Assembly (NCBI GenBank): GCA_965648905.1
Contig: CBFGIT010000001.1
Location: 8,704 to 72,703, forward strand
Reading direction: 5' to 3'
DNA: 64,000 nucleotides
Source: a candidate division WOR-3 bacterium
GTDB taxonomy: Bacteria > Hydrothermota > Tepidihabitantia > Tepidihabitantales > Tepidihabitantaceae
The position numbers and the translations under genes were made by a program. Positions 5,438 through 63,325 of the stretch are shown here, one piece after another. Position 1 is the stretch's first letter; every line of letters begins with the position of its first letter. The notes beneath the pieces were generated by a model. The model did no database searches. It was not told the origin of the DNA and saw only the letters and a list, made by a program, of their open reading frames with translations.

Positions 5438-5459
5438 GCCCCTGGGCCTTGCCCGCGGC

Positions 5460-7392: not shown

Positions 7393-7876
7393 TCTCTGCC
7401 GCGAGAACGAAGCCAGCATCAAGGTCCATCAGATGGACTCGGGCGGTAAGGTGACCGAACTTGCCGTCTGCACCGAGTGCGCCCGGCAACGGGGCCTGGC
7501 CGAGGTCAAGCCGGCCAAGACCGCGTCGGTCGAGGTAATGGCCGAACTCAAGGCCGGACTCAAGGAAAAAGACGCCGCGCTGGTCTGCTCGCACTGCGGC
7601 ACGACACTGGCCGACTTCAAGCGCCAGGGCCGGCTTGGCTGTGACTACTGCTACATCGCCTTCCGCGAAGAACTCCTGCCCCTGATTCGGCGCCTGCACG
7701 GCGCAACCCAGCACCTGGGCCGGACAACCAGAACCGGCCGCAAAGACGCTCATGTCCGGCTGACCACAGACCGGATCCGGGATGCCCTCTCTGCCGCGAT
7801 CAAGAACGAGGACTACGAGAAAGCTGCGGCACTGCGCGATGAACTGCGCAAGGTGGAAGATGAAGCTGGGAAGTAA
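7379..7876 (+). CDS. mcsA: McsA-like protein (zinc-finger CxxC pairs + C-terminal UVR motif), activator of protein-arginine kinase
   Basis: Two CxxC..CxxC zinc-ribbon motifs and a UVR motif (DYEKAAALRDELRKVE). It lies directly upstream of and overlaps mcsB. Confidence 0.6.
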   Translation: MKKCDLCRENEASIKVHQMDSGGKVTELAVCTECARQRGLAEVKPAKTASVEVMAELKAGLKEKDAALVCSHCGTTLADFKRQGRLGCDYCYIAFREELLPLIRRLHGATQHLGRTTRTGRKDAHVRLTTDRIRDALSAAIKNEDYEKAAALRDELRKVEDEAGK

Positions 7877-8903: not shown

Positions 8904-10285
8904 TGAATGATAAGGGCGTGATGTTTCGTTCCCTGCCTTCGGTCGACAGGTTGCTTGCCGATGCCCGGCTCGGCCCGGTCCTTGGCCGGGTGCACCGACG
9001 GATGGCGGTGCGGGCGGTAAGGGAGTATCTGGAGGAGGTGCGGGCCGACATCACTGCGGGACGAACTCGGGAGTTCTGTATCGAGGAACTGCGGGAGCGG
9101 CTTGAAGGCGAGATTCGGCCGACTCTGGTCCGTGCAATCAACGGCCTCGGTGTCATCCTGCACACCGGTCTCGGTCGGGTTCCTTTGTCGCGCGCAGCGC
9201 ATGAAGCGCTGGCCGATGCGGCCGAGCACTTCTGCTGTCTCGAGATTGACCGCACCACCGGTCGCCGCGGCAGCCGGTACCGGCACATCGAGCCTCTTCT
9301 CTGCGAGCTGACCGGCGCGGAAGCGGCCATGGTCGTGAACAACAACTGCGCGGCAACGCTCCTAATTCTCACCGGCCTGGCGCGCGGCCGGGAGGTTGTG
9401 GTCTCGCGCGGCCAGCTTATCGAAATCGGCGGTGCGTTCCGGATTCCGGAGGTGATGCTTCAGAGTGGTTGTCGAATGGTCGAGGTTGGCACGACCAACC
9501 GTACCCATCTGCGTGACTACCGCAGCGCCATTAGCGCCGATACGGCACTGCTGTTGCGCGTCCACACTTCGAACTACCGGATCACCGGTTTCACCAAAGA
9601 AGTCGGGCTTGACGAGTTGGTCGCGCTCGGGAAAGAGCACTCGATCCCGGTTGTCGACGACCTGGGCTCGGGCGCACTCATCGACCTTTCGAAGTACGGT
9701 CTGCCCAAGGAGCCGCTGGTACAGGAGTCGGTTGCGGCGGGCGCAGACCTGGTCTGCTTCTCCGGCGACAAACTCATCGGCGCATCCCAGGCCGGGATCA
9801 TTGTCGGCCGGAAGAAGTACGTTGACCTGCTCAAGAAACACCCATTGACCCGGGCCCTGCGCTGCGGCAAGCTCACCTATGCGGTACTTGAACGTACTCT
9901 CCTGCTTTTTCTCGACGAGGAGCAGGCCGTGAAGGAGCACGCTTTGTTCCAGTTGCTTCTGAAGCCGGTGGCGCAGTTGCAGACTGAGGCGACCGCACTG
10001 AAACGCCGGGTCGGCCCGGCCCTGGCTGGTAAGGCTGAACTGCGGGTCCGGCCGTGCCGGGCTGAAGTCGGCGGCGGTTCGCTTGCGACCGAGAGCCTTG
10101 AATCCCGTTGCCTGGCCCTGAAGCCAAGAGCCATTTCTGTGGACGAGCTTGCCCGCCGGATGCGGCGCAACCGCCCGCCGGTGTTCGGTCGGGTCGAGCA
10201 CGACGAATACCTGCTCGACTTTCGCACGATTCGCCGGGATGAAATCCCCTTGATCGCTCAAGCCCTGCTTGCCGCGCTGAGCTAG
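8900..10285 (+). CDS. selA: L-seryl-tRNA(Sec) selenium transferase SelA
   Basis: 461 aa with N-terminal LPSVDRLL and a PLP fold-type I core typical of SelA. ATGA overlap with mcsB. Confidence 0.9.
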   Translation: MMNDKGVMFRSLPSVDRLLADARLGPVLGRVHRRMAVRAVREYLEEVRADITAGRTREFCIEELRERLEGEIRPTLVRAINGLGVILHTGLGRVPLSRAAHEALADAAEHFCCLEIDRTTGRRGSRYRHIEPLLCELTGAEAAMVVNNNCAATLLILTGLARGREVVVSRGQLIEIGGAFRIPEVMLQSGCRMVEVGTTNRTHLRDYRSAISADTALLLRVHTSNYRITGFTKEVGLDELVALGKEHSIPVVDDLGSGALIDLSKYGLPKEPLVQESVAAGADLVCFSGDKLIGASQAGIIVGRKKYVDLLKKHPLTRALRCGKLTYAVLERTLLLFLDEEQAVKEHALFQLLLKPVAQLQTEATALKRRVGPALAGKAELRVRPCRAEVGGGSLATESLESRCLALKPRAISVDELARRMRRNRPPVFGRVEHDEYLLDFRTIRRDEIPLIAQALLAALS

Positions 10286-49673: not shown

Positions 49674-52600
49674 CTAGCGCTGGAGCACGAGTTTCTGACT
49701 GACTGAGTAAACGCCTGCGTTCAGACGCACCGTGTATACGCCGGCACTCAAGCCACGCAGGTCGAGCGGCAATGACGAAGTCCGAATGCCGAATGACGAG
49801 CGGAGGACGCGGCGGCCTGAGGCGTCGTAGATGCTGATGCTCGGGACACGATCCGAAATGCCGGGCACTTGGGTCATGTCCCAGCACAGCGTGGCGAAGC
49901 CGGAGCGGAGCGGGTTGGGCGTGATGGTGAACCCGGCCGGTCGCCTATCGAACGCCGAGGCCAGTACGCCAGACCGGGCTGCCCGGCCCGTGGCCAGGGG
50001 CAGTACGGTTGAGCCCGGTGTGTACATCCAGAACTCCTGGGTCTTGTTGCCCTTGAGCGCAAAGCACATGCCGGATCGGCCTGATACGTAGGGCGTGATG
50101 TCGCCGCCGAGCTTGACCTTCTTCTTCTTGCCGGTCGAGCCAAGCTCGGGCATCGCTTCCTGTTCCTGCCAGGAGTCGGCGGCAGCCAGGTATTTCCACA
50201 GCTCGGTTGTGTTACCGCCTTTGAGCGCGTAGACGCCGTCGTGCAACCACGCACCGGCCGCGCCGTCTTTCGACTTCTTGGACTTGCCCAGTCGGCCGAT
50301 GAGCGGCATGCCCGGCCGATTCGGACCCCAGGCATCGTCGATGATGTCATAGGCGAAGAGGACGTGATACTTGGCCTGGTGCACAAACACGGTCCGGTCG
50401 TCGTCATAGACCGCAAACGAGCCCGGGCCGAGCTTAAGTACGGGCGCGGGAATTGAGGCAAGTGGAGTCCAAGAGTCACTCACCGGGTCATAGCGGTAGA
50501 ACTCGTTCTTGTCGCCCTTGACAAGGTAGACCTTGCCCTGGGCATACGCGACATCAGCGCCGCCTTTGACCCGCCGGTTTGAGGTGCCGAGCGGGACCGG
50601 CTCAAGGGCTGACCAGGAGTCGTGTGCCGCATCGTACCGGTAGAAGCCCTGGGTGTTGTTGCCTTTGACCATGTAGACCAGGCCGTTACCGTCAGCGCAG
50701 GCATTGGCGCCTTTGCCGACCAACTTGTTCTCAACTCCGGCCGGAATCGGGCGGCGTGCGCTCCAGGAGTCGCCGACCGGGTCATAGGCGTAGAAGTCCG
50801 CGGTCTTGCCCCCGGCCGCAGCGTAGACCTTCATCGTTGCCGGCTCACCGACAACAAACGCACCAGCCTTGGCCGCAAGGGGCAGGCGGGCACGTTCAAG
50901 CCAGGGCGGCGGCGGCGGCCCGGTGATGAAGCTGAACTGACCGGTGAGCGTATCGTTGGCCGGGTTACCGTCGTAGGCAACACTGGTCGAGCAACGAGTC
51001 GTGTAGCTGCCTGGATCGTGTGGTTTGGGCAGAGTATCAAAGCCTACCATCACCGAACTGCCCGGAGCCAGACTGGTGACCGTGCGGCTGCTTGAGTAGA
51101 TGACCGAGTTGGCCTGGTCCAGAATCCGGAAGAACACGGTCGGCGCAGCGGCAAAGTTGCCCTGGTTGCGCACGGTTGCTGCCGGCACAACGACTGCGCC
51201 GGTATCGACACTGCCGACCGGAGAGTTGATTGCGCTCACGCCCACGTCCACCCGGCCGACGGTGAATGCCTGAGCTAGCGAATCGTTCGCCGGCACTTGA
51301 TCACCGCTCATCCTTGAGCGGCAGACCGCAGTGTACGATCCGGTCCAGGCATCCCAGTTCGGGAAGGTCGCGGTTGTATCGACACCCGAGGGCAGACCCA
51401 GAGGCAGGTCCAGGCTCTCAAGATACGCGGGCGATGAGTTGATGGCGAAGAACAGGCGGACCGGGTCGCGCTGCGTGCCGTAGTTGTGCACGACCGCGGC
51501 TGGCATGGTCGGCCCGGGCGGCACCATGCCTGAGGGCGACACAATCTGCGTTACACCGACATCACGCACCGCAACATAGACCGTGCCAAGCACCGTGTCG
51601 TTCGCGGCTACCATGTCTGCGGCGAGCATGGTCGTGCATCTTGTTGCTAGGGCACCGCGCTGGAGCGCGGTCCAGGACGCAAAGTTCACCGCCTGCGATG
51701 CACCGGCAGCCAGATTGGTCACGGTCTGGGTGTTCGAGTAGCCAGAGCCGATGTTGAGCCGGACATTGAACGTCGCCGCCTGAGTCCCGTTGTTCCGGAC
51801 TGTGGCCTGGGGCGCAATCACTGCGCCCGAATCGACCGTGCCGGTCGGAGCATTGATCGATACTGCCTCGGCGTCGAGCACGCGGACAAACACGTTCCCG
51901 GTCGCGATGTTGTTAGCCGGAACCATGTCACCAGTCAGCATCGTGGTGCATCTTGTCGCCAGAGTGCCGCGCTGGAGCGCGGTCCAGGACGCAAAGTTCA
52001 CCGCCTGTGACGCACCGGCGGCCAGATTGGTCACGGTCTGGGTGTTCGAGTAGCCGGAGCCGATGTCGAACCGGACATTGAATGTCGCCGCCTGAGTCCC
52101 GTTGTTCCGGACTGTGGCCTGGGGCGCAATCACTGCGCCCGAATCGACCGTGCCGGTCGGCACATTGATTGATACTGCTTCAGCATCGAGCACGCGCACA
52201 AGAACTGACCCGGTGTCACGGTCATTAGCCGGGGCAATGTCACCCGGGAGTTCGGTCGAGCATCGCACCACCTGGATACCGCGCGGCCAGTTCGAGCCGG
52301 CCAAGAAGGTCACATAGCGTGCCGTGCCCGGCGCATGAGCGGTGATGGCTGCGATCTGGTTGTAGCTCGACCCGATTCTCATCCGCACCTGGTAATCAAC
52401 CGTGCTCGAGCCGTAGTTGTACACTGTGCAGGCCGGAACCACCGACTGGGTCGAGTCGATCGTGCCGGTTGGTACTATGATGCGGCGCACGCCGACGTCG
52501 CCGACCTGGCGGCTGACGTCACCGGTAATGGTCCAGGCAAAGGGCTGGCGCGCGCTCGTTGCCACTTGGAAACCGTAAACCCGGATCGTCCAGACCCCGG

Positions 52601-54605
52601 TCGCCGGTGAGTTGACGCGGACGCACTCCTCAACGTTCAGCGTATCCCAGACAGTCGGGTTCGGCGTTGACTGGCCCCCAGAATACTGGTTGCCGCGATA
52701 GACTGTTCCGCCCGGAGCAATCACTTCGAGGTTCAGGTTGTTGACCAGGGTGCGCGACGCGCTGGGCGCGGCTGCAGTGTCGGTCCAGGCCAGGGCAACT
52801 CGCAGCGGAATCGAGGAGTTCACCACGAACTGCTCTTCCTTGTACTGGCCGGTGCTCACGCCCGAGGTGTCGTCTTTGATAATCAGCTTGCGCGTATCAC
52901 CAGCAAAATAGAGCACCGAGTCAGCATCAATCCGGCCCCAGCCGATATCGAAGCTAGGCACGACGTACGACCCGATGTTCGGGTCAGCCGAAGCAACGGC
53001 CATCGAACGCAGCAGGGCCGCGCTGATATACGAGATGCTGTCAGCCGGGTTCGCAGTTCCGGTCGGATAGTAGCCCTCACGCAGATAGCAGCGCATCAAA
53101 CCGACCGTGCCGTTGACTGCTGGCGTTGCCATTGAAGTTCCGGACATCTGCTGGTAGGTATTGGTCCCGGACGACGTCGCCGAGTACAGATTCACCCCTG
53201 GCGCGCAGACCGTCGGCTTCAGCCGATTGTCCGCGGTCGGCCCGCGGCTGGAAAAACTGGCAATGGCGTTCGACGAAGTGCCGTTCTGGGTCGCACCGAC
53301 CGTAATCACGTTCTTGGCAATACCGGGATTGCGGATCCGCCGCGTGCTCGTCTCGTTGCCGGCAGCCATGATATTGAGGAAATCCTTGTATACCCAGGAG
53401 TAGTTGTCGGTCGAGGCGTCCATCAGCAGATAGGTTCCGCTCGAGTTGGACCAGCCCCAACTTCCCGAGTGCTGACGAATCGGCCGCAGCGAGTCAGGCA
53501 GACCCCGGCCAAGATAGACCGAGTCCCAGAGCGGAGTCAGGTCATCGCTGATGACGAAGGTCCCGGAGCTGTTGGTCAGGTCAACAAAGTAGAGGCGTCC
53601 CTTGATTGACATGCCATCGTAGTAGCTGGTCCCGCCCGTGACCGAGTCGTCGCCCGCCACCGTGCCGTTGACGTGGCTGCCGTGGTAGGGCGTTTCACCC
53701 TGTTGTGCGCCCTGATACAGCTTGAACGCAACGACTTTGCGGTGCGTCGGCCATATCCCGGGCGCAGTCACCGACAGGTTCGGGTCACGGAAAAGGTTAT
53801 GGCCAAGGTTCAGTCCGGTGTCGGTCGTTGATAGAATCACCCGCTGGCCGCGCACACCTTTCGCCCAGACCTTGCGCGCCGTCATGCTCGTGTCCGGCGG
53901 CGCAGTTGACTGCCAGCCGGTCTGCACGACCCACTGGCAGTTGTTGTTACACAGCTCAGGCTCGGTCCAGAGCTGAACCCAGATAACCTCCTGCAGCCGG
54001 GCAATCGCCGGTATTGCCGAGGCCGGAACCGTCACCGTTATCGACGTGCAGAACTCAGACTCGACCACATCGGCATACGCCGCACCCTGGTCAGCCAGCA
54101 CCTGAAGAATGGGTCGGTGCTCCTCGCCCGGGGTCACGACGATGACCAGTTTGACGCTGCCCGAAGCACTAAGCAGTACGTCCTGTAACTTGTACGCCGG
54201 CTGAAACAGACCGACCCAGTGCACCATCGGCAATGCCTGGACTGCGGCCTTCTGGGCCGGTTCGAGCTTGGCCAGAACCGCGTAGCTCGGCAGGTAGCCG
54301 AAAGGCCGGACATCAATTCGCCTGAGCTCCTGATACCACTCCGGCCTTATCGGGCCGTTGAACTGGATGATGTGGTAGGCAGGGCCGGGCTGGTGTTCGG
54401 AAAGCGCCAGCTCCGGCGGGATTGCAGACACGCCGGTTCGGGTATCGACCACGAACCCGTTGGAAAAACTGACTTCGTTCAGCTCATTTCCTGCCACCGG
54501 GTCAAAGTGCCGCGCCGGGCCCATGCTGTAGTGCGATGACGGTCGGGCAGAACCGTTGCTGGCCAGCGCGCAAAGAACGGACAGGCAAACGACGAGCGCT
54601 TTCAT
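49674..54605 (-). CDS. subtilisin-like serine protease (S8) with I9-like propeptide, tandem CARDB domains, kelch-like beta-propeller and T9SS C-terminal sorting domain
   Basis: Catalytic triad motifs TDTGLNLGHNLF (Asp), HGSHVNGTVAG (His) and MSGTSMATP (Ser). Signal peptide from ATG 54605 with an AGGAGG SD. CTD ends VYTVRLNAGVYSVSQKLVLQR. Contains a tandem 312-bp duplication. Confidence 0.9.
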   Translation of the reverse strand: MKALVVCLSVLCALASNGSARPSSHYSMGPARHFDPVAGNELNEVSFSNGFVVDTRTGVSAIPPELALSEHQPGPAYHIIQFNGPIRPEWYQELRRIDVRPFGYLPSYAVLAKLEPAQKAAVQALPMVHWVGLFQPAYKLQDVLLSASGSVKLVIVVTPGEEHRPILQVLADQGAAYADVVESEFCTSITVTVPASAIPAIARLQEVIWVQLWTEPELCNNNCQWVVQTGWQSTAPPDTSMTARKVWAKGVRGQRVILSTTDTGLNLGHNLFRDPNLSVTAPGIWPTHRKVVAFKLYQGAQQGETPYHGSHVNGTVAGDDSVTGGTSYYDGMSIKGRLYFVDLTNSSGTFVISDDLTPLWDSVYLGRGLPDSLRPIRQHSGSWGWSNSSGTYLLMDASTDNYSWVYKDFLNIMAAGNETSTRRIRNPGIAKNVITVGATQNGTSSNAIASFSSRGPTADNRLKPTVCAPGVNLYSATSSGTNTYQQMSGTSMATPAVNGTVGLMRCYLREGYYPTGTANPADSISYISAALLRSMAVASADPNIGSYVVPSFDIGWGRIDADSVLYFAGDTRKLIIKDDTSGVSTGQYKEEQFVVNSSIPLRVALAWTDTAAAPSASRTLVNNLNLEVIAPGGTVYRGNQYSGGQSTPNPTVWDTLNVEECVRVNSPATGVWTIRVYGFQVATSARQPFAWTITGDVSRQVGDVGVRRIIVPTGTIDSTQSVVPACTVYNYGSSTVDYQVRMRIGSSYNQIAAITAHAPGTARYVTFLAGSNWPRGIQVVRCSTELPGDIAPANDRDTGSVLVRVLDAEAVSINVPTGTVDSGAVIAPQATVRNNGTQAATFNVRFDIGSGYSNTQTVTNLAAGASQAVNFASWTALQRGTLATRCTTMLTGDMVPANNIATGNVFVRVLDAEAVSINAPTGTVDSGAVIAPQATVRNNGTQAATFNVRLNIGSGYSNTQTVTNLAAGASQAVNFASWTALQRGALATRCTTMLAADMVAANDTVLGTVYVAVRDVGVTQIVSPSGMVPPGPTMPAAVVHNYGTQRDPVRLFFAINSSPAYLESLDLPLGLPSGVDTTATFPNWDAWTGSYTAVCRSRMSGDQVPANDSLAQAFTVGRVDVGVSAINSPVGSVDTGAVVVPAATVRNQGNFAAAPTVFFRILDQANSVIYSSSRTVTSLAPGSSVMVGFDTLPKPHDPGSYTTRCSTSVAYDGNPANDTLTGQFSFITGPPPPPWLERARLPLAAKAGAFVVGEPATMKVYAAAGGKTADFYAYDPVGDSWSARRPIPAGVENKLVGKGANACADGNGLVYMVKGNNTQGFYRYDAAHDSWSALEPVPLGTSNRRVKGGADVAYAQGKVYLVKGDKNEFYRYDPVSDSWTPLASIPAPVLKLGPGSFAVYDDDRTVFVHQAKYHVLFAYDIIDDAWGPNRPGMPLIGRLGKSKKSKDGAAGAWLHDGVYALKGGNTTELWKYLAAADSWQEQEAMPELGSTGKKKKVKLGGDITPYVSGRSGMCFALKGNKTQEFWMYTPGSTVLPLATGRAARSGVLASAFDRRPAGFTITPNPLRSGFATLCWDMTQVPGISDRVPSISIYDASGRRVLRSSFGIRTSSLPLDLRGLSAGVYTVRLNAGVYSVSQKLVLQR
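51597..52220 (-). repeat. near-perfect tandem duplication (2 x ~312 bp) encoding two almost identical CARDB domains inside the S8 protease gene
   Basis: Landmark gctggagcgcggtccaggacgcaaagttcaccgcctg recurs 312 bp apart. The translated repeats are >95% identical. Confidence 0.8.
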
Positions 54606-54689
54606 GGTGCCTCCTGGATTATTGCTCTGGACCGGGTGAAGTAATCCTACCGGGCATACCATGAAGTGTCAAAATCGGCCGGGCCGATG

Positions 54690-54717
54690 TTGAACCTCTG
54701 CCGGACTTGGCTAGAAT
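54690..54717 (+). promoter_or_regulatory. candidate promoter TTGAAC-16 nt-TAGAAT for the mttB-like operon
   Basis: Located in the 150-bp divergent intergenic region, ~35 nt upstream of ATG 54756. Confidence 0.35.
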
Positions 54718-54755
54718 CGCTTTCTATCCGCCGAACCTGCCCGAAAGGACCACTC

Positions 54756-56210
54756 ATGCGACCCGTACTGCGCCTGTTATCCGACAGCCTGGTTGAACAG
54801 GTCCTGGCCGAAGCCCGGACTCTCCTCTGCGGTCTGGGAATGATCGTGCACAACGACGCGGTGTTGCGACTGCTTGGTGAGCACGGTGCCGAAGTTGACC
54901 TTGCCCGCCACCATGTTCGGTTCAACAACGACATTATCGACTATGGCCTCAAATCCGCTCCCCGCTCATTCAAGCTGTTCGACCTGCTCGGCAACCAGAC
55001 CCATGAGTTTGCTGGCGACAACGTCTATTTCACCCCTGGCTCGGCCGCCTTGAATATCCTTGACTCCAGCACCGGCCAGATGCGGCGACCGAAGACTCCG
55101 GACTATGTCGAGTACGTTAAGCTCGTAAGCGGGCTTGACCACCTTGCGGCTCAGAGTACGGCGCTGATTCCTGATGACGTGCCGGAGCGCATCTCGGACA
55201 GCTATCGGCTGTATCTGAGCCTGCTCTTTGGCGAGAAGCCGGTTGTCACCGGCTGCTTCACTATCGAGTCGTTCGCGGTGATGCGTGACATGCAGGTCAC
55301 GGTCCGGGGTTCAATTGAGGCGCTTGCAGCCAAGCCGCTCACCATTTTCTCCTGCTGCCCGACTGCCCCGCTCAAGTGGAGCGATGTTACTTCTCAGAAC
55401 CTGGTCGACTGCGCAACCTGCGGCATTCCGGTCGAGTTCATCTCGATGCCTTTGTCCGGGTTCATGGCTCCGGTCACGCTCGTGGGAACACTGGTACAGC
55501 ACACGGCTGAGACCCTGAGCGGAGTAGTCATCAGTCAACTTGCCCGGCCGGGTACGCCGGTCCTCTATGGCGGCTCGCCGGCAATCTTCGACGTGCGGCG
55601 CGAAACCACGCCGATGGGTGCAATCGAGACGATGATGACCGACTGCGCTTACTCGGAAATCGGCAAGCATCTTGGCCTGCCGACCCAGGCCTATATTTCC
55701 TTGAGTGATGCCAAACTGCTCGATGCGCAGGCCGGACTTGAGACCGGGGTCGGCGCAATTCTCGCTGCCCTTTCTGGGATCAACAGCGTCTCCGGCCCGG
55801 GTATGCTCGACTTCGAAAGCTGCCAGAGCCTTGAGAAGCTCGTGCTCGACAACGAAGTCTGCGGCATGGCTGTGCGTCTTGTGCAGGGCATCGAGCCGAA
55901 GGACGACTTTCCAGCGCTGCCGCTCTTTGAGGAGCTGCTCAAAGAAGGTCATCTGCTCATCAGCCGCCATACCCGGCGCTGGCTCAAGACCGAGCACTTT
56001 TTCCCGGGTCCGGTTATTGATCGCGCCAACCACGGCCGCTGGCTTTCCGAGGGTGCTCTGACTCTGGCTGAGCGTGCCCGGCAGGAGAAAGAGCGTATCA
56101 TCAGTCGCTGGCAGCCGACAAGACTGCCTGAGGATGTGAAGAGAGAGCTGACCCGTCTGATGAGTGCTGAAGCCCGTCGCTGCGGGATGGAGCGCCTGCC
56201 CGCACTGTGA
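54756..56210 (+). CDS. MttB-superfamily (trimethylamine methyltransferase-like, non-pyrrolysine) substrate:corrinoid methyltransferase
   Basis: 484 aa with full-length similarity to the MttB/MtgB family (COG5598) and no in-frame UAG. Internal ATG with an aaagga SD. Confidence 0.85.
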   Translation: MRPVLRLLSDSLVEQVLAEARTLLCGLGMIVHNDAVLRLLGEHGAEVDLARHHVRFNNDIIDYGLKSAPRSFKLFDLLGNQTHEFAGDNVYFTPGSAALNILDSSTGQMRRPKTPDYVEYVKLVSGLDHLAAQSTALIPDDVPERISDSYRLYLSLLFGEKPVVTGCFTIESFAVMRDMQVTVRGSIEALAAKPLTIFSCCPTAPLKWSDVTSQNLVDCATCGIPVEFISMPLSGFMAPVTLVGTLVQHTAETLSGVVISQLARPGTPVLYGGSPAIFDVRRETTPMGAIETMMTDCAYSEIGKHLGLPTQAYISLSDAKLLDAQAGLETGVGAILAALSGINSVSGPGMLDFESCQSLEKLVLDNEVCGMAVRLVQGIEPKDDFPALPLFEELLKEGHLLISRHTRRWLKTEHFFPGPVIDRANHGRWLSEGALTLAERARQEKERIISRWQPTRLPEDVKRELTRLMSAEARRCGMERLPAL

Positions 56211-56929
56211 GAGCTATCTGCCGATTCGCTGCCACCGACTGCATTCCAGACCGGAGAGACGTGCTTTCAGCCGAAGGCATGGCTGGTTCGAGCCCGGCTT
56301 CAGCCGTGACCGAAGAGCTTCTTACCCGCGCCTTGGCCATGTTCAGCGCGAAGGCAACTCCGGTCGGTGTCTACGCCGACATCAGTATTCCAGAGTTCAG
56401 CGCGGTCTTTGCCGGCGAAGGTCAGAACGACCCTGAGGCGCCGCTTCGTAATATCTTCCCGAGAGCAGACAAGCTCGCCTTGTTTGCCTGTACGGTCGGC
56501 CCAGAGCTGAACCGGCAAATAGCTGACCTGTTCGAGCAGCACGAGTACGCGCTCGGGTATGTGCTTGACGCGGTTTCATCCTGCGGTACCGAGCGTCTTG
56601 CCGACCTGGTTCAGGCTGGCTGGGCGCGGGACATGAACGAATTGTCCGACAATTCGTATCGTGTCCCAAGCCCGCTGGTCGCCCTCGCCTACAGCCCGGG
56701 CTACTGCGGCTGGCACGTTTCTGCTCAGCGGCAGCTGTTCCGGTTTCTGAGGCCGGAGGAGATCGGCATCACCCTCAGGGAAAGCTGCCTGATGGAGCCG
56801 CTCAAGTCGGTTTCGGGCGTGTTCGTTCTTGGCCCGAGAGAGATTCACCAGTTCGACAACACTCTTGGTTTCTGCACCGAGTGTCGGTCTGCCACCTGTC
56901 GCGGCCGGCAGCAATCAGCAAAGGAGTAA
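56207..56929 (+). CDS. MetH-type AdoMet-binding reactivation domain protein (Met_synt_B12-like)
   Basis: C-terminal region AYSPGYCGW..ITLRESCLMEPLKSVSGVFVLGP matches the MetH activation domain signature (RYSxGY..LTESxAMxPxxSVSG). The start is GTG 56207 (overlapping the MttB stop) or ATG 56279. Confidence 0.6.
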   Translation: MRAICRFAATDCIPDRRDVLSAEGMAGSSPASAVTEELLTRALAMFSAKATPVGVYADISIPEFSAVFAGEGQNDPEAPLRNIFPRADKLALFACTVGPELNRQIADLFEQHEYALGYVLDAVSSCGTERLADLVQAGWARDMNELSDNSYRVPSPLVALAYSPGYCGWHVSAQRQLFRFLRPEEIGITLRESCLMEPLKSVSGVFVLGPREIHQFDNTLGFCTECRSATCRGRQQSAKE

Positions 56930-56930
56930 G

Positions 56931-57566
56931 ATGGAACTACTAGCTCAACTTGGTCAGGCACTGGAGCAGGGCGATGAAGAACGCACTGCCGAACTTGCCC
57001 GGCAGGCGGTCGCAGCCGGCATCCCGGCCAAAGCAATACTCAACCAGGGGCTGATTGCGGGCATGAACAGCGTCGGCGTTCTGTTCCGCGACGGCGAGAT
57101 ATTCCTGCCTGACGTGCTGCTTGCGGCCCGGGCAATGTATGCCGGACTGGACGTAGTCAAACCTCTGCTCGTCGAACAGAAGGTCGAGCCGCTCGGCCGG
57201 GTTGTCATCGGCACGGTTCAGGGCGACCTGCACGACATCGGCAAGAACCTGGTCGGCATCATGCTGCGGGGCGCCGGGTTCGAAGTCATCGACCTGGGCA
57301 ACGACGTTGCACCCGAGCGGTTTGTCGACACGGCGGAAAAAGAAGGCGCACGGGTCATCGGCCTCTCGGCTTTGCTGACGACCACGATGCCGGTGATGAA
57401 AAAGGTATGCGACCTGGTGACGCAGCGCAACCTGCACGACCGCATCAAGGTCATCATCGGCGGCGCACCGGTGACCGAGGAGTATGCCCGACAGATACAG
57501 GCTGATGCCTACGGCTTTGACGCCGCAGCCGCAGTCGATCGGGTCAAACAGCTCATGGGGACATGA
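56931..57566 (+). CDS. cobalamin-binding corrinoid protein (B12-binding_2 + B12-binding, DxHxxG)
   Basis: GDLHDIGKN motif and a Rossmann B12-binding domain, 211 aa. SD aaggag; starts 1 nt after the upstream stop. Confidence 0.85.
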   Translation: MELLAQLGQALEQGDEERTAELARQAVAAGIPAKAILNQGLIAGMNSVGVLFRDGEIFLPDVLLAARAMYAGLDVVKPLLVEQKVEPLGRVVIGTVQGDLHDIGKNLVGIMLRGAGFEVIDLGNDVAPERFVDTAEKEGARVIGLSALLTTTMPVMKKVCDLVTQRNLHDRIKVIIGGAPVTEEYARQIQADAYGFDAAAAVDRVKQLMGT

Positions 57567-57604
57567 CCAAATCTCGCCTGGGAGATTCGGATCGTGTCCC
57601 CGGA
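57559..57604 (+). repeat. mini-repeat copy 1 (ACATG..AATCTCGCCyGGGAGATTCGGATCGTGTCCCCGGA) with internal 9-bp inverted repeat
   Basis: Spans the start codon of the Hcy-methyltransferase gene and encodes MTKSRLGDSDRVPG. Confidence 0.7.
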
Positions 57605-58519
57605 CCGCTGCTTGCTGACGGCGCGCTCGGTTCGTTGCTGATGGAGCGCGGACTTGCGCCTGGTGAGCCGCCTGAGACGTTTTGCCTTTTTCGACCGGAC
57701 GTGCTGACCGAAATCGTGCGCCAGTACGCTGCCGCTGGTGCTAAGGTGTTCCAGGCCAACACGTTTGGTGCTTCGCCCTTGAAGCTCGCCCGTCACGGAC
57801 TCGAATCCCGCTGCGAAGAAATCAACCAGACAGCGGTTCGTATCGTGCGCGAAGCAGTAGCCGGCAAAGGTCTTGTCTGGGCCTCAGTGGGCCCGAGCGG
57901 TTGCCTGCTTAAGCCATACGGTGACACCGACCCGGAGCGTGTCTGCAGGAGCTTTCTTGCACAGGCGCAGGCACTGGCTCGGGCCCGGCCTGATATCGTC
58001 GCGGTCGAGACCATGACCGACCTTGCCGAAGCAGTACTGGCAGTCAGGGCAGTGCGCACAGCCATGCCGGCGGTGCAACTGGCAGCAACCATGGTCTTTG
58101 ACAAGCGCAGGCGAGGCTTCTTCACGGTCATGGGCAACACGATTGCGGACTGTGTGCAGGCACTGGCTGACGCTGGTGCGAACATGGTCGGCTCCAACTG
58201 CGGCAACGGTATCGAGACCATGGTACAAATCGCCCGCGAGTTCAGGCAGGTGACCAGCCTGCCGCTTGTAATTCGCCCGAACGCCGGCCTGCCCCAGGTC
58301 ACTGCTGGCAGGGACACGGGAGACATGCCCGAATCTCGCCCGGGAGATTCGGATCGTGTCCCCGGAACGCACAAGGTGACGTATCCTGAGACACCGGAAT
58401 TCATGGCTGCGCACCTGCCGGAGCTGCTCGAACAGGGCCTGGCGATTGTCGGCGGCTGCTGCGGCACAACACCAGACCACATCCGTGCGTTCCGCGCCGT
58501 GCTCACGGGAATGTCCTGA
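57563..58519 (+). CDS. homocysteine S-methyltransferase domain protein (MetH N-terminal Hcy-binding module)
   Basis: Zinc-ligand motifs NCG and GGCCGTTPDHI plus ADGALGSLL (DGAMGT-like). ATGA overlap with the corrinoid gene. Carries two copies of a ~46-bp mini-repeat in-frame. Confidence 0.8.
   Translation: MTKSRLGDSDRVPGPLLADGALGSLLMERGLAPGEPPETFCLFRPDVLTEIVRQYAAAGAKVFQANTFGASPLKLARHGLESRCEEINQTAVRIVREAVAGKGLVWASVGPSGCLLKPYGDTDPERVCRSFLAQAQALARARPDIVAVETMTDLAEAVLAVRAVRTAMPAVQLAATMVFDKRRRGFFTVMGNTIADCVQALADAGANMVGSNCGNGIETMVQIAREFRQVTSLPLVIRPNAGLPQVTAGRDTGDMPESRPGDSDRVPGTHKVTYPETPEFMAAHLPELLEQGLAIVGGCCGTTPDHIRAFRAVLTGMS
58320..58366 (+). repeat. mini-repeat copy 2 (same ~46-bp element, ~90% identical) inserted in-frame in a loop of the Hcy-methyltransferase
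   Basis: Encodes DMPESRPGDSDRVPG, a ~20-aa insertion relative to MetH between the NAGLP and GGCCGT regions. Stem CCGAATCTC/GAGATTCGG. Confidence 0.7.
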
Positions 58520-58553
58520 CTGCGGCTGCGGTATATCGCCGCGGAGGTAGTCA

Positions 58554-60902
58554 ATGCTCATACTGAAAAAACTCGTGCCCGTGCTCGGCCTGTTCCTGGG
58601 CAATCTGGCCCTGGCCCAGTTGACCGAACTGTCAGAAGAAGACAAGACCCTGTCGCCCTATTTCTTTGTCCAGAGCGACGACCCGTCAGTTGACCGACTG
58701 CCGCTGCTCAAGACCGAAGCGACAGTTGACATCGCCGGCGTCATCGCCGATGTGAAAGTCACCCAGGTTTACAAGAACGACGGCAAGCGGCCGATTGAGG
58801 CAGTTTACACGTTCCCGGCCTCGACCCGCGCCGCAGTCTACGCCATGAAGATGACCATCGGTGACCGGACCATTGTTGCCCGGATCAAGGAACGTGATGA
58901 GGCCCGCCTCGACTACGAAGCGGCCAGACAGCAGGGCAAGAGCGCCTCGCTCTTAGAGCAGCAGCGGCCCAACGTGTTCCAGATGAACGTGGCGAATATC
59001 ATGCCCGGCGACTACATCAAAGTCGAGATGAGTTATACTGAGCTGCTCGTGCCTGTCTCCGGCGTGTATGAGTTTGTCTACCCGACCGTGGTTGGCCCGC
59101 GCTACAACGGCAAGGCCGGGTCCGAGTCGCACAAGCCAGAGCAGTGGGTCAAGAGTCCCTACACCCGCGAGGGCGACGCACCGAGCTACGAGTTCGGCCT
59201 GACGGTCAATATCGTGGCCGGGATGCCACTACAGGACGTCTCCTGCCCGACCCATAAGACAATGATTGCTTTCAACGGCTTGAATGAGGCGAGCGTGCGG
59301 CTCGACCCGTCAGAGAAAGCCGGCGGCAACCGCGACTTCATCCTGCGCTACCGACTCGCCAGCAGCGGAATCCAGACCGGCCTCTTGCTCTACCCGGGCA
59401 AGGACGAGCAGTTCTTCCTCCTTATGCTGCAGCCGCCCAAAAGGGTTGAGGTCAGCCAGATTCCAGCGCGCGAGTACATCTTCATACTCGACGTGTCCGG
59501 CTCGATGCACGGGTTCCCTTTAGACATCTCCAAGAAGCTGATGCGGAACCTGCTCTCCAACCTGCGGCCCAAAGACTGCTTCAACATCCTGTTCTTCTCC
59601 GGCGGCAACTTCGCACTTTCGGAAAAGTCGCTGCCTGCGACCGAGAAGAACGTTGCGGATGCGCTTGCGACAATCGAAAAGCAGCGGGGCAGCGGCGGAA
59701 CTGAACTCTTGCCCGCGCTCAGGCACGCGCTGGCGCTGCCGCGTACTGAAGGCGCGTCGCGCACCGTGGTCATTGCCACCGACGGCTACGTGACGGTCGA
59801 AACCGAGGCGTTCGACCTGATTCGGGACAATCTGGACAAGGCCAACCTGTTTGCTTTCGGCATCGGCTCCAGCGTCAACCGGTACATCATCGAAGGCATG
59901 GCCCATGTCGGAATGGGCGAGCCATTCATCATCGACAAGCCGGAACGAGCCGAGGCCCAGGCCGAGAAGTTCCGAGCGTACATCGAAACTCCGGTGCTCA
60001 CCGGTATCGACATCGACTTCCCCGGATTCGACGCCTATGACGTCGAGCCGAAGACTGTTCCGGACGTGACTGCGGACCGGCCCATCATCGTCTTCGGCAA
60101 GTACCGCGGCAGAGCCTCGGGTGCAATTACGGTACGCGGCTGGGCTGGCAAGGGCGGATACTCTGAGGCCGTCAAAGTCACTGACTTCCCGCCGGACAAG
60201 AGGAACGCGGCCTTGCGCTACCTCTGGGCGCGACACCGGATTCAGCTTCTTGCTGACTACAACAACCTCGACGAGGACAAAGAGCGGGCCAAGGAAGTCA
60301 CCAGGCTTGGCCTTGAGTACAACCTGCTGACCCGATACACCTCGTTTGTTGCCATTGACCAGCAGGTGCGTAATGTCGGCGGTAGACCAGAAGTTGTGGA
60401 GCAGCCGCTGCCCATGCCCGAAGGCGTATCCGACTATGCAGTCAGTGGCCGTGGGGTTGCCGGGTACTCTGGTTTGTACAAAGTCGGACGTCCATTTCTC
60501 GGTTCCACCAGTGCGCCGACCAGTGGTGGAGCGCTCATGCCCGAACCTGAAGCCGCATCCCAGTCCCCGGTGCTGCGTGGTACAGTCCGGCTTGTCAAGC
60601 TCGAGGCAATTGGCGGTCGGTCCGAGCAGTCGGTCAAAGGCGTCATCGAGAAGAAGCTTGCGGACATCCGGGCCGCATACGTACAGGAGCTTGCGACCGA
60701 CCCAACGCTCGCGGGCAGGCTCGCGCTTGAGTTCACCATCGGGCCTGACGGCACGGTACGCGAAGCCAGGGCGGTGCGCAACGAACTGAGCCCCGGACTT
60801 GAGCGCAAGGTGCTCGAACTCGTGAGAAGCCTTCGCTTCCAGAAGTTTCAGGGCCGCACTACAACCGTATCGCTGGCCCTTGATCTAAGGCCATGGCCAT
60901 GA
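58554..60902 (+). CDS. secreted VIT + von Willebrand factor type A domain protein
   Basis: Signal peptide, VIT-like N-domain, vWA MIDAS motif DVSGSM, and a C-terminal domain of unknown type. Confidence 0.8.
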   Translation: MLILKKLVPVLGLFLGNLALAQLTELSEEDKTLSPYFFVQSDDPSVDRLPLLKTEATVDIAGVIADVKVTQVYKNDGKRPIEAVYTFPASTRAAVYAMKMTIGDRTIVARIKERDEARLDYEAARQQGKSASLLEQQRPNVFQMNVANIMPGDYIKVEMSYTELLVPVSGVYEFVYPTVVGPRYNGKAGSESHKPEQWVKSPYTREGDAPSYEFGLTVNIVAGMPLQDVSCPTHKTMIAFNGLNEASVRLDPSEKAGGNRDFILRYRLASSGIQTGLLLYPGKDEQFFLLMLQPPKRVEVSQIPAREYIFILDVSGSMHGFPLDISKKLMRNLLSNLRPKDCFNILFFSGGNFALSEKSLPATEKNVADALATIEKQRGSGGTELLPALRHALALPRTEGASRTVVIATDGYVTVETEAFDLIRDNLDKANLFAFGIGSSVNRYIIEGMAHVGMGEPFIIDKPERAEAQAEKFRAYIETPVLTGIDIDFPGFDAYDVEPKTVPDVTADRPIIVFGKYRGRASGAITVRGWAGKGGYSEAVKVTDFPPDKRNAALRYLWARHRIQLLADYNNLDEDKERAKEVTRLGLEYNLLTRYTSFVAIDQQVRNVGGRPEVVEQPLPMPEGVSDYAVSGRGVAGYSGLYKVGRPFLGSTSAPTSGGALMPEPEAASQSPVLRGTVRLVKLEAIGGRSEQSVKGVIEKKLADIRAAYVQELATDPTLAGRLALEFTIGPDGTVREARAVRNELSPGLERKVLELVRSLRFQKFQGRTTTVSLALDLRPWP

Positions 60903-61441
60903 ACGGACCAGACACAAACGACCTGATTGTCGGGTTCTACTCAGGCGCGTGCCCTGATCATGCTGGCCGCACATTGGACCAGATTCTGGGCTGGGACGAT
61001 GAACGCCTGGAAGAAGTCCACGACTACATCCAGTGGCTCTTTCCCATGGAACAGCCCAGCCCGGTCAACCCATCTGCTCCAGTGGTTCGGGAGGGGACCC
61101 GGCGTGCGTTCAAAACAAGCCCGCTCCTGCGCGACAACCTGTGTCGCGCCTGTGCGCGGATGCTTGCCTTCTACGGTCTTGAGTGCGACCACGATGCTCT
61201 GAGTCCAGATGTCGTGCCCGGAGAAGACTTCGCCGACAAGTCGGGCCACTGGATGCATCCCGGTAACCACAATCTGCTCCGGCTTACAAGGATTCTGACC
61301 AGTCTGCGCCTGCTCGGCCGAAGTCAGTGCTCAAAGAGCATCCATGCATGCTTGTCCCGACTCGCTGCCGAACACCCCACGCGCATCCCGACTATGACCT
61401 TGCGCTTCTGGGATAGCACCCAGTCAGCGCCCGAGCCGTAA
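60893..61441 (+). CDS. hypothetical protein, possibly OGFr-N-like conserved domain
   Basis: HDYIQWLFP motif region; 182 aa; overlaps the upstream gene by 10 nt. Confidence 0.45.
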   Translation: MAMNGPDTNDLIVGFYSGACPDHAGRTLDQILGWDDERLEEVHDYIQWLFPMEQPSPVNPSAPVVREGTRRAFKTSPLLRDNLCRACARMLAFYGLECDHDALSPDVVPGEDFADKSGHWMHPGNHNLLRLTRILTSLRLLGRSQCSKSIHACLSRLAAEHPTRIPTMTLRFWDSTQSAPEP

Positions 61442-61474: not shown

Positions 61475-63325
61475 CTACAGCTTGACCAGCGTTACCGGAC
61501 CTGGGCGAGCTGCTGAATCGACGCGGCGCACAACATAGGTGCCGGCAGGAAGTTCACTCAGGTCCAGCTCGATGCTGACGTCAGTTCCAGAACAGCCTAC
61601 TGCCATGAGGAGCTGGCCGGCTATGTCGTAGATACCGAATGTCTTGCGGCCTGGCCCGGTCACGCGCAACAGAGCGCGCGACCCAGTGACCGGGTTGGGC
61701 CAAAGCGATAGCCGCTCCGGCCGAGTCGGGGCAGCCGGTGCTTCCACGCCGGGCACCGGACCAGCAATAACCAGCTTGCCATAAGCCGATGACGCAAGCA
61801 GGGAGTCTCCAGACAGCTCGGTCCGCCACCAGCCCGGCCAGGTACTGTCGCCGAGCATGCCGAGGAAAGCAACTCCAACCGTATCGCCGGTCGGGTCAAT
61901 GTCCAGCTTGTACGGCAAAGTGCCGACGGGAACCGCGGCCTCGAACACAAGGCTTCCACCCGCCACGCTCACCGCAGCCTGTGAGCCCGCGACCGGCGAA
62001 GGCGGCCCCATGACACCGGCGCGGACATAGCGGTACAGGAGCTGGCTGACGCCCTGCTCGTTCACCAAGGCAAAGTAAGCGCCCTCGCTCATGTCAGCCG
62101 GCCACCGGCCGTCGTTGTTCTCATCGCAGAGCAGGACCACCTGGTCGAACGTGTCACGCCGATGCACTGCTGGCATCTCCGCGGCGATGTAGAGGTAAGC
62201 CGAATCGTGCACGGACCAGCCGCGGACACTGCCAGCCGGGAACGAAAGTCCGTAGACACCGCCGACATTGGAGGCGTCAAAGAAAGCTGCCTGGTCCCAT
62301 TCATCCGGCATGAGCACGCCGTCAATCAACGGCGCCGGGCCCGCCGAGAATGAGGAACCGATAGTATCGGTCGAGACCATCAAGTGGGTTCGCATCGTGT
62401 CGTTACCCGGAACCTGGTCGCCAGGCAAACTGGTGAAGCACTCGACCTTGTATCCGGACCAGAGCTCGGCATTGGGAGTCCATGTGCCGGTGCACGTGAC
62501 CACGGCCGAGTCAGAAGGCGCAATCGAGCCCAGGACCAGGTTCTCGCTGAATATCCGGTTGCCGGCTGAGTCGATGCGTACCGTTACCGGCACGTTGGTC
62601 TGGGCCGCAGTGCCGAGGTTCGCCACCAGGCAGCTCGGCGTAACCGGAATGCTGCTGTGGAGCCGACCGCCTGCAGGTGCGATGATGCGGCTGACGGCAA
62701 CGTCGTTGGCCGGACGGGACAGAATGATGTCGTCGGCGAAGACCTTCGCCCAGGGCGTCCCTCAGCCGCCGCTGGTCCAGGCGTACAGCGCGACCCCGAC
62801 CTTGCGCACCCGTGCACGGCTGACTCCGCGCAGATTCTGCGCCAGCTCGTCAGCCAGATTCATCTCGTACTGCTGCCAGCCCGGATTGGTCACTTCAATC
62901 AGATGGAAGGTATCGGACGGGGCCCACGTGCAGTACTGGTTGTGGTAGTAGAAGTAGGTTTCACCCAGGACCGCGCCGGAAGAGTCAAGAAAACTGACCA
63001 TGATGCTTGCGACCGGCCAGCACGTGGACGAACCGCCACCCAGTTCGAATGCTGCCCAGAACGACAGGTCCATGGACAAAGTCGTGACCGGCACGACCTG
63101 ACGCAGAGCCAACCAGCCTGGCCCGGCGTAAAGGTAGCCTTGAGCTTCGTAGTCCGGGTCAGGATGGTAGGTGACGTCGCGGCCGAACGTGACCGTGCCG
63201 CTGCCGCCCTGTTCCTGATTCCAGCCCACGGTCAACTCCTGCTCAAAGTCACCGTTGGTGAGCAGATTCTGGGCTGGGGTCAGGCCCAGAGCGAGCAACG
63301 AGCAGACGATTACTCGGGCAATCAT
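61475..63325 (-). pseudogene. T9SS cargo gene (signal peptide + CBM4/9-like domain ... CARDB-like ... T9SS CTD) interrupted by one in-frame TGA at 62762-62764; pseudogene or candidate selenoprotein
   Basis: ORFs 62762..63325 and 61475..62626 are in the same frame and separated only by a TGA. The N-terminal part has a signal peptide and the C-terminal part ends in CTD GTYVVRRVDSAARPGPVTLVKL. Confidence 0.6.

Follow-up and report, generated by a model that had tools for sequence, protein, structure and literature searches.

A four-gene operon of a candidate division WOR-3 bacterium encoding a putative cobalamin-dependent route to methionine without a methyl-tetrahydrofolate module

In 2022, Williams et al. 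(Environ Microbiol; PMC9324843) reported a cluster composed of a non-pyrrolysine MttB/MtgB homolog, a homocysteine (Hcy) S-methyltransferase, a corrinoid protein, and an activation protein binding S-adenosylmethionine (AdoMet), which was found in two metagenome-assembled genomes (MAGs) of Candidatus Electryoneota and in 'diverse bacteria'. In that article, the cluster was hypothesized to perform a novel corrinoid-dependent methionine synthesis, the methyl donor being left unnamed, and the MAGs in question additionally encoded a full-length MetH. Here, it was analyzed a stretch of 64,000 nucleotides from a candidate division WOR-3 bacterium (contig CBFGIT010000001.1 of assembly GCA_965648905.1), referred to as the window at its full length, in which the same four components were found side by side at positions 54690-58519. 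Nothing essential differed between this operon and the cluster of Williams et al., so that the window holds another instance of it, in a different uncultured lineage. We consider, with a probability of about 0.68, that the operon encodes a self-contained cobalamin-dependent methyl transfer that makes methionine without a methyl-tetrahydrofolate module. The initial annotation of this DNA named no characterized match for the operon; both the cluster and this hypothesis had, however, been published in 2022, and the related MtgBCDE system of Ruegeria was published in 2025 (PMC12478193). The added value of the present analysis therefore lies in sharper testable predictions and not in discovery. The accessible text of Williams et al. 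contained no donor-pocket residue analysis, no cysteine motif, and no URO-D variants, and what is new here comprises the pocket evidence against glycine betaine, the four-cysteine activator, and the URO-D and RACo variants of the same core. The four genes, as called from their open reading frames (ORFs), are the following:

54756-56210 (+), gene 1, non-pyrrolysine methyltransferase of the MttB superfamily, 484 aa
56207-56929 (+), gene 2, stand-alone protein of the MetH activation-domain type, 240 aa, GTG start
56931-57566 (+), gene 3, corrinoid protein, 211 aa
57563-58519 (+), gene 4, zinc-type homocysteine S-methyltransferase, 318 aa

Among the experimentally studied systems, that of Ruegeria pomeroyi bears directly on this arrangement. 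Mausz et al. (2025) demonstrated by genetics that MtgC and the pterin methyltransferase MtgD serve both betaine demethylation, which depends on MtgB, and methionine synthesis, which depends on MtgE (PMC12478193), in a work that builds on the three-part split MetH described in Phaeobacter inhibens by Price et al. in 2018 (PMC5764234). As in the window, the Ruegeria system comprises a separate MttB-family enzyme, a corrinoid protein, and a PF02574 enzyme, with a single shared corrinoid protein, and, since this was shown genetically, an MttB-family enzyme and an Hcy methyltransferase can share one carrier. However, in Ruegeria the pterin-binding MtgD is essential, the methyl group passes via tetrahydrofolate (THF), the genes are dispersed, betaine is the donor, and reactivation is carried out by a RamA-like DUF4445 protein together with DUF1638, no PF02965 protein being involved. 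In the window, in contrast, the cluster lacks a pterin module and is organized as a single coupled operon, with a PF02965-type activator that carries four cysteines and with the betaine residues gone.

The relationship with MetH is best seen in Thermotoga maritima, in which TM0268 (Hcy-Fol-Cob) and TM0269 share with the operon the zinc ligands, the His-on corrinoid binding via DxHxxG, and an activation domain on a separate polypeptide, the best structural matches of genes 2 and 4 being TM0269 and TM0268, respectively. The operon differs from MetH in that the place of the folate barrel is taken by an MttB-family barrel, and in that gene 3 is more similar to MtgC and to the methylamine-type proteins. 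The MtgB-MtgC-MtgA system of Desulfitobacterium hafniense and the MttB-MttC-MtbA system of methanogens also combine an MttB-superfamily MT1, a corrinoid protein, and an MT2, but their acceptor is THF or coenzyme M, their reactivation relies on the ATP-dependent RamA, and their donors are betaine or trimethylamine (the latter with pyrrolysine 334). Folate-independent, corrinoid-fed methionine formation was described for the core methionine synthases MesA-D/core-MetE by Price et al. in 2021 (PMC7857596; PMC7005905); these enzymes are MetE-like and of an unrelated fold, whereas gene 4 is MetH-like (PF02574), and neither MttB nor this cluster figures in that work. BHMT is likewise a PF02574 zinc enzyme with the net conversion of a methylated amine and homocysteine to methionine, but its methyl transfer is direct and involves neither cobalamin nor partner proteins. 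Finally, a 2025 sediment study found MAGs of Zixibacteria and other groups with 'MttB' as the sole corrinoid methyltransferase, MetH being absent, and a recent study interpreted such MttB genes as a source of methyl groups for the methylation of mercury (PMC12484752).

The initial annotation had described four translationally coupled genes, and their ORFs, strand, and junctions were all reproduced, so that the cluster is real and its four genes are coupled. A GAAAGGA sequence lies 7 bases 5′ of the gene 1 ATG; genes 1 and 2 overlap by 4 nt (GTGA); genes 2 and 3 are separated by a single nucleotide (TAA-g-ATG), with an AAGGAG within the 3′ end of gene 2; and genes 3 and 4 overlap by 4 nt (ATGA). 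In the public annotation of the 213,106-bp source contig, the products of genes 1, 3, and 4 are identical to those given here, and gene 2 begins at an internal ATG, giving a protein of 216 aa in which 24 residues (56207-56278) are left off. The alignment of 36 homologs places the N-terminus of the gene 2 family at the GTG overlapping the gene 1 stop, which supports the 240-aa form. The domains first proposed for the four products were recovered by profile searches, with matches to PF06253, PF02965, PF02607/PF02310, and PF02574, and all four proteins were singletons in a protein-cluster look-up.

The four-gene synteny, which the initial annotation had suggested to look for in other genomes, was found to be widespread. 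Relatives of gene 2 were searched in one genome per species, covering 185,579 species, and at least 478 stretches of these species-representative genomes were recovered. The best 80 of the 478 loci were analyzed, 69 of them with enough sequence for all four positions to be tested, and the order MttB-activation protein-corrinoid protein-Hcy methyltransferase (MttB-Act-Cob-Hcy) was identical, on one strand, in 55 of these 69. The best 80 loci span more than 10 phyla, and the carriers include WOR-3, Zixibacteria, Acidobacteriota, Planctomycetota, Gemmatimonadota, Eisenbacteria, Marinimicrobia, Ignavibacteria/Chlorobi, Aminicenantes, and others. Because the identical four-gene order recurs in 55 of 69 testable loci and in many phyla, the arrangement is far beyond chance, and the four predicted activities are, by sequence, encoded together, coupled, and co-inherited. 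With the window proteins as reference, median identity was highest for gene 1 (68%) and gene 3 (63%) and lower for gene 4 (49%) and gene 2 (44%), and the nearest relatives of the operon were found in an unclassified MAG and in a WOR-3 MAG. An exhaustive search of 1.84 billion representative proteins retrieved 198 clusters at 50% identity for gene 2 (E<=1e-30).

The surroundings of these loci were also inspected. As far as the scanned ORFs show, no pterin module occurs within 6 kb of the cluster in the 80 loci, and the scanned ORFs of the 64-kb window included no metH, metE, metF, pterin-binding methyltransferase (PF00809), RamA, or B12-synthesis gene. The PF00809 module, which in canonical MetH (TIGR02082) is expected to be fused or adjacent to the other modules, was thus found neither in the window nor among the neighbors scanned in related loci. 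A RACo/RamA-type activator was likewise found neither within 6 kb in the 80 MttB-cluster loci nor in the 64 kb analyzed, although the genome may carry one at another place. Among the genes around the 80 loci, no conserved neighbor (transporters; folate, methionine, or B12 genes) recurred beyond one WOR-3 lineage, and the families recurring within that lineage (UPF0047, DUF6249, and a pair of ECF sigma and anti-sigma factors) are unrelated. It was also observed that, in loci L081 and L082 (7408-10101), the corrinoid and Hcy genes of an otherwise typical cluster are separated by inserted genes for an ECF sigma factor, a zf-HC2 anti-sigma factor, and a DUF4097 protein, three families that are also found at the flanks of the cluster in the WOR-3 lineage.

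The corrinoid protein and the stand-alone Hcy methyltransferase appear, from their gene neighborhoods, to constitute a common acceptor core that can be combined with different donor enzymes and different activators. In an acidobacterial MAG (L077), a URO-D-family gene (4871-6013) replaces the MttB gene and overlaps the start of an Act-Cob-Hcy trio. The nearest NCBIfam models of its product were those of the MtaA/CmuA methylcobamide methyltransferases, with scores under their cut-offs, and a metagenome scan revealed 304 relatives of this protein. The best 80 of these 304 were analyzed, and a stand-alone PF02574 gene lay within 4.5 kb in 17 of the 40 loci that had at least 2.2 kb of downstream sequence. 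The URO-D-Act-Cob-Hcy order was also present in L087 and in L088, whose activation protein keeps the same four cysteines as gene 2; URO-D-Cob-Hcy sets were found in L132 (with 4-nt overlaps), L135, L136, L138, and L146; and L104 presented a RACo/AcsV-like activator followed by URO-D and Hcy genes. Moreover, URO-D orthologs adjoin MttB clusters in L036 (3258-4424) and L028 (7180-8343), and in L052 (10199-11356) one of them adjoins an Act-Cob-Hcy trio without an adjacent MttB gene. This modularity of the acceptor core is the strongest indirect support for the reading in which the operon conveys methyl groups from a donor to homocysteine. The URO-D-linked sets would themselves represent parallel putative methionine-forming corrinoid systems; they are apparently undescribed, since no paper on them turned up, although no search was aimed at them. 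In a MAG of Candidatus Eisenbacteria (L037, 6001-8788), the four-cysteine activation protein was observed next to a 678-aa fusion of Hcy methyltransferase and MTHFR, of the YitJ type, with no MttB or corrinoid gene adjacent to it.

Concerning the donor side, gene 1 matched PF06253 MTTB with an E-value of 6e-73 (245.9 bits against a cut-off of 25) over profile positions 29-491 of 500. Its score against TIGR02369, the model of MttB proper, was 331 bits, under the cut-off of 525, which places it outside that equivalog. Its identity to MtgB (27%) and to MttB (28%) is slightly below that between these two enzymes (30%), and its orthologs from other phyla show 62-85% identity to it. By these comparisons, gene 1 represents a third branch, or distinct clade, of the MttB superfamily; a separate MttB branch was likewise recovered in the tree of Williams et al. 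(PMC9324843). An in-frame TAG, which could encode pyrrolysine, was looked for in gene 1 and none was found, the corresponding position being occupied by a leucine:

55701-55703 (+), UUG codon of Leu316, aligned with Pyl334 of Methanosarcina barkeri MttB

Of the 52 orthologs, 47 have Leu here, encoded by varied codons, and the equivalent of MttB Tyr364 is Ser346. A match to the Rfam model PYLIS_3 (RF02510) was found within gene 1 at 55701-55800 (+), with 40.6 bits against a gathering threshold of 38; it begins exactly on the Leu316 codon and recurs at the same relative position in 5 of 11 orthologous loci (L002, L004, L009, L011, L027). A relic or functional pyrrolysine insertion element was considered and rejected, since the matching bases fall in stretches conserved for coding, four model pairs are non-canonical, no UAG is present, and the Leu codon is variable. 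On these sequence grounds, the match is one of coding homology with mttB.

In a 2026 study, mutagenesis and a ligand-bound structure were used to define how MtgB holds betaine (PMC13080624). It was shown that Y97 and F356 grip the quaternary nitrogen and that R312 and H348 grip the carboxylate, R312 being conserved in the functionally characterized members of the MttB superfamily discussed there, all of which have acidic quaternary amines as substrates (PMC13080624). When gene 1 was aligned with its 52 orthologs, these four positions were occupied as follows:

MtgB Y97: S96 in gene 1, the same residue in 47 of 52 orthologs
MtgB R312: Q311 in gene 1, the same residue in 52 of 52 orthologs
MtgB H348: S346 in gene 1, the same residue in 47 of 52 orthologs
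MtgB F356: E354 in gene 1, the same residue in 47 of 52 orthologs

The clade has an invariant pattern comprising T310-Q311, Y313, D352-F353, G347-P348-G349, and F236, to which the near-invariant Ala312 (50/52) and Cys356 (51/52) are added. Since gene 1 and most or all of its orthologs have S, Q, S, and E where MtgB has its four betaine-binding residues, glycine betaine is an unlikely donor, and the choice of this compound in the initial annotation was not borne out. Because the carboxylate-binding Arg was lost and conserved Asp and Glu residues were gained, a methylated amine without an acidic group, for example a trimethylamine-like or choline-like cation, would be a more likely donor than betaine.

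The product of gene 3 matched PF02607 (E 4e-22) and PF02310 (E 5e-30), corresponding to the B12-binding cap and Rossmann domains, and carries the following motifs:

57225-57242 (+), DLHDIG (DxHxxG), residues 99-104 of gene 3
57366-57377 (+), SALL (SxL) of gene 3
57456-57467 (+), IGGA (GG) of gene 3

Its best NCBIfam score was obtained with MtgC_2 (222.7 bits, cut-off 370), ahead of TIGR02370 (205.3 bits, cut-off 215.3) and MetH (144.8 bits), all of them below the cut-offs. Judging from these scores, gene 3 is not simply a detached MetH module, being nearer to the cognate corrinoid proteins of the MtgC and methylamine types. The initial description of three MetH modules as separate ORFs is therefore accurate in a loose sense.

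For gene 4, PF02574 was matched with an E-value of 2e-58 (198.7 bits), and the best match among PDB entries was the Hcy barrel of T. maritima MetH (1q7m; residues 16-288, E 2e-42). The cysteines of two motifs align with the zinc ligands Cys207 and Cys272/273 of that protein:

58193-58210 (+), SNCGNG of gene 4
58451-58468 (+), GGCCGT of gene 4

NTFGA, ETMTD, NCG, and GGCCGT, as well as DGA.G, are conserved among the gene 4 orthologs, and the second-best NCBIfam match was the BHMT model (173 bits against a cut-off of 338). The sequence evidence thus identifies a homocysteine barrel and not a pterin barrel, in agreement with the MetH-type, Hcy-binding zinc methyltransferase initially recognized; a pterin-binding domain, which would have overturned that proposal, was not what the searches returned. 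Gene 4 also harbors two copies of a hairpin-forming repeat:

57557-57608 (+), 52-nt repeat, copy 1, spanning the junction of genes 3 and 4; RNA fold of -32.9 kcal/mol, z -4.4
58319-58370 (+), 52-nt repeat, copy 2, 90% identical to copy 1; fold of -31.4 kcal/mol, z -2.9

Copy 1 provides the ATG and the N-terminus of gene 4, that is, its first ~15 residues (MTKSRLGDSDRVPGP), and copy 2 adds 21 aa in frame (RDTGDMPESRPGDSDRVPGTH, residues 250-270) to the loop after PNAGLP. Neither copy was present in gene 4 of the closest relative (L001) or of 14 other orthologs. The repeat resembles the palindromic elements that insert in frame into genes. A dispersed element was rejected, since the 64-kb window has only two copies, both in gene 4, and an assembly artefact could also be the source of the repeat.

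The product of gene 2 matched PF02965 Met_synt_B12 with an E-value of 3e-10 (40.5 bits against a cut-off of 25), at profile positions 120-250 of 273 only, and a single-sequence search of the PDB sequences gave no significant match (best E 0.2). The profile of the 36-member gene 2 family, in turn, matched TM0269 (1j6r) at E 4.7e-9 over near its full length, followed by the activation domains of the Thermus and E. coli MetH. The AlphaFold2 model of gene 2 presented a mean pLDDT of 91, and its best Foldseek match was again the T. maritima reactivation protein TM0269 (1j6r; E 1.7e-12, TM 0.81); 19 MetH activation-domain chains were matched at E<=0.001, those of E. coli, Thermus, and human included, and the next match had an E-value of 0.13. 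The Pfam match, the family profile, and the predicted structure agree that gene 2 carries the MetH activation-domain fold, as had been initially proposed; a lack of Met_synt_B12 homology, which would have overturned the proposal, was not observed. Two of its motifs deserve attention:

56690-56716 (+), YSPGYCGWH motif of gene 2, including the conserved Cys167; its SPGY aligns with that of the RxxxGY region, which binds AdoMet
56873-56899 (+), CX2CX4C motif (Cys223, Cys226, Cys231) at the C-terminus of gene 2, which with Cys167 may form a metal or [4Fe-4S] site

The four cysteines are invariant in the 36-sequence alignment and were present in all 79 loci with a readable region, and TM0269 has neither the Cys after SPGY nor the C-terminal CX2CX4C. 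In ThiC, a C-terminal motif with identical CX2CX4C spacing, followed by a helix, holds a [4Fe-4S] cluster (PMC4389238), and a helix after the motif was also observed in the gene 2 model. In the corrinoid iron-sulfur protein AcsC/CdhE, the cluster is held by CX2CX4CX16CP (PMC4023990). By analogy, it is a reasonable hypothesis that the cysteines of gene 2 form a built-in electron-entry site for the reduction of Co(II), a structural zinc site being the plain alternative.

Taken as a whole, the operon would work as follows. Gene 1, the predicted MT1 as suggested by its family, would move a methyl group from an N-methylated compound to the Co(I) of the gene 3 protein. Gene 4, the predicted MT2 to judge from its family and its zinc and homocysteine motifs, would then move this group from methyl-Co(III) to homocysteine, yielding methionine and Co(I). 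When the cobalt is oxidized to Co(II), gene 2 would, on account of its fold, rescue it by reduction and AdoMet methylation like the last module of MetH, and its four cysteines may hold the metal or iron-sulfur center carrying the electron. The corrinoid protein and the Hcy methyltransferase would be the acceptor core to which different donor-specific methyltransferases attach. The function of the operon is in this sense a prediction from sequence. The transfer from an MttB-type donor to homocysteine via cobalamin, already put forward in the initial annotation, is the best available reading and had the anatomy right, its betaine part excepted. A more ambitious version, which would join a modular folate-independent route with exchangeable MttB and URO-D donors, a gene 1 clade demethylating a non-acidic methylamine without pyrrolysine via a pocket of Asp/Glu and aromatic residues, and a gene 2 iron-sulfur activator whose own electron entry replaces RamA or flavodoxin docking, must be regarded as rather doubtful in all its parts at once.

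Several observations weigh against the proposed folate-independent function. One or two genes were missing from the expected place in 14 of the 69 testable loci, even if in at least one of them, L081, the Hcy gene was only shifted 3 kb downstream by the ECF sigma/anti-sigma insertion. The pocket of gene 1 would narrow the donor to a candidate class and not to a single compound, and the lineage-specific 21-aa insertion and replaced N-terminus of gene 4 could impair the protein, although the frame is kept. In gene 2, the Gly-Tyr and the preceding Ser-Pro of Arg-x-x-x-Gly-Tyr, the AdoMet-binding motif of E. coli MetH, are invariant in the family, but the Arg corresponds to Ala161; the family consensus at this position is Arg, with P, G, C, H, S, Q, T, and L as variants. 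Because this Arg is replaced or variable, AdoMet use by gene 2 is likely but not assured. The initial view of reactivation as AdoMet/MetH-like is thus upheld by the activation fold and is weakened by the altered Arg and the four extra conserved cysteines, and the reactivation may differ from that of MetH. A literature search retrieved no experimental test of the cluster in any organism. In addition, since the MAGs of Williams et al. also encode a full-length MetH, the operon is not necessarily the only methionine synthase of its carriers, and the presence of PanB in the window implies that the organism uses folates.

The last two points would also suit a carrier shared as in Ruegeria, in which the gene 3 protein would additionally serve an unlinked pterin-binding methyltransferase (MtgD/MtgA-like), gene 1 would mainly feed THF catabolism, and gene 4 would make methionine mostly from methyl-THF via the same carrier, the direct flow from donor to methionine being a side flux. 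The fact that MtgC and MtgD are each required in Ruegeria for both betaine use and methionine synthesis speaks for such a hub. We nevertheless consider it unlikely, since no pterin-binding gene was found in the 64-kb window or among the ORFs scanned beside the cluster in other loci, and in 55 of 69 loci the MttB and Hcy methyltransferase genes have been kept together within a coupled operon, whereas the Ruegeria genes are dispersed and accompanied by a RamA-like activator and DUF1638. It is decidedly improbable, in our view, that gene 1 binds a universal methylated cofactor, such as N5-methyl-THF or another methylated pterin, and that the operon is a fully split MetH. A universal substrate would fit the fact that gene 1 is the most conserved of the four (median 68% across phyla). 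The cluster also has no linked transporter that could import a substrate, and MttB and the methyl-THF methyltransferases are structural neighbors, both being corrinoid-docking TIM barrels (PMC9842639). However, every characterized PF06253 member uses a small N-methyl amine, the gene 1 pocket retains the general MttB/MtgB architecture with small-residue changes, and no sign of pterin binding emerged in this analysis.

Very little credence is given to a different purpose of the operon, in which the PF02574 protein would methylate another thiol, or the flow would be reversed, with methionine or a thioether as the donor and an amine methylated by gene 1. The URO-D/MtaA-like partners of the same core do belong to the methylcobamide:thiol methyltransferases, thiol chemistry being common in these clusters, but gene 4 retains the Hcy-barrel motifs of MetH (DGA.G, NTFGA, ET..D, NCG, GGCCGT), as do all its orthologs. 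To our knowledge, the characterized PF02574 proteins all act on homocysteine or selenohomocysteine, and the demethylation of methionine by Co(I) is thermodynamically unfavorable, both of which count against this explanation. As for a mis-read ordinary glycine betaine:THF system (MtgB-MtgC-MtgA with RamA), gene 1 does adjoin a corrinoid protein with MtgC_2 as its best NCBIfam match, but the barrel of gene 4 binds homocysteine and not pterin according to its sequence, the activator has the MetH-type fold and not that of RamA, the four betaine residues of MtgB are all absent, and the NCBIfam scores are all under the cut-offs, so that this explanation is refuted by the domain and residue tests. 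The initial annotation had foreseen that its proposal would fail if a canonical metH/mtgA lay elsewhere and the operon proved to be a widespread, known betaine-to-THF system; the cluster is widespread, yet it is not such a system.

Regulatory signals around the operon were also searched. A single promoter-like site precedes gene 1:

54690-54717 (+), promoter-like site TTGAAC-16 nt-TAGAAT, 9 of 12 matches, 39 nt upstream of the gene 1 ATG

Two such sites were found in the region against 1.5 expected from shuffled sequences, and the promoter scan gave nothing above the shuffled expectation. The terminator scan detected none after gene 4 and, again, nothing above the shuffled expectation, and a search for SAM, B12, and THF riboswitches detected none in 54300-58800 or upstream of the operon in 11 orthologous loci.

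The neighbors of the operon are unrelated to it, consisting of an S8 protease gene upstream, on the opposite strand (-), and genes for a VIT-VWA protein and an OGFr_N-like protein downstream. The upstream gene (49674-54662, -) encodes a secreted S8 subtilase of 1662 aa with CARDB repeats, Kelch motifs, and a T9SS C-terminal sorting domain, besides two near-identical internal repeats of ~110 aa, and a second protein with a T9SS tail is encoded at 61475-62626 (-). These tails, taken with the nearest relatives of the operon, would fit an organism of FCB-group or WOR-3-like affinity. The OGFr_N-like gene (60893-61441, +) shares its first 10 nt with the end of the VIT-VWA gene, and its product of 182 aa matches PF04664 OGFr_N (E 5e-18), the conserved region of an animal protein, the opioid growth factor receptor. 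Farther in the window, panB, panC, selA, mgtE, cstA, and a class II aminoacyl-tRNA synthetase gene were found, among others. At 7782-10285 (+), a gene for an ATP:guanido phosphotransferase (McsB-like) is followed, with a 4-nt overlap, by selA, which codes for selenocysteine synthase and indicates selenoprotein use by the organism.

If the proposed function is true, many uncultured bacteria of sediment, soil, and groundwater, from phyla including WOR-3, Zixibacteria, Acidobacteriota, Gemmatimonadota, and Planctomycetota, would draw the methyl group of methionine, and hence of AdoMet, straight from methylated amines and not from folate. The availability of B12 and the cycling of methylamines would then be tied to a central anabolic step, and the calls of methionine auxotrophy and of 'MttB = trimethylamine use' made from metagenomes would change. 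Should the MttB genes of the sediment study be part of such a cluster, those organisms might have no other methionine synthase that depends on B12. The identity of the donor used by the gene 1 branch would extend the chemistry of the MttB superfamily, and the four-cysteine activator may constitute a third route of corrinoid reactivation, beside the flavodoxin-dependent one of MetH and the ATP-dependent one of RamA.

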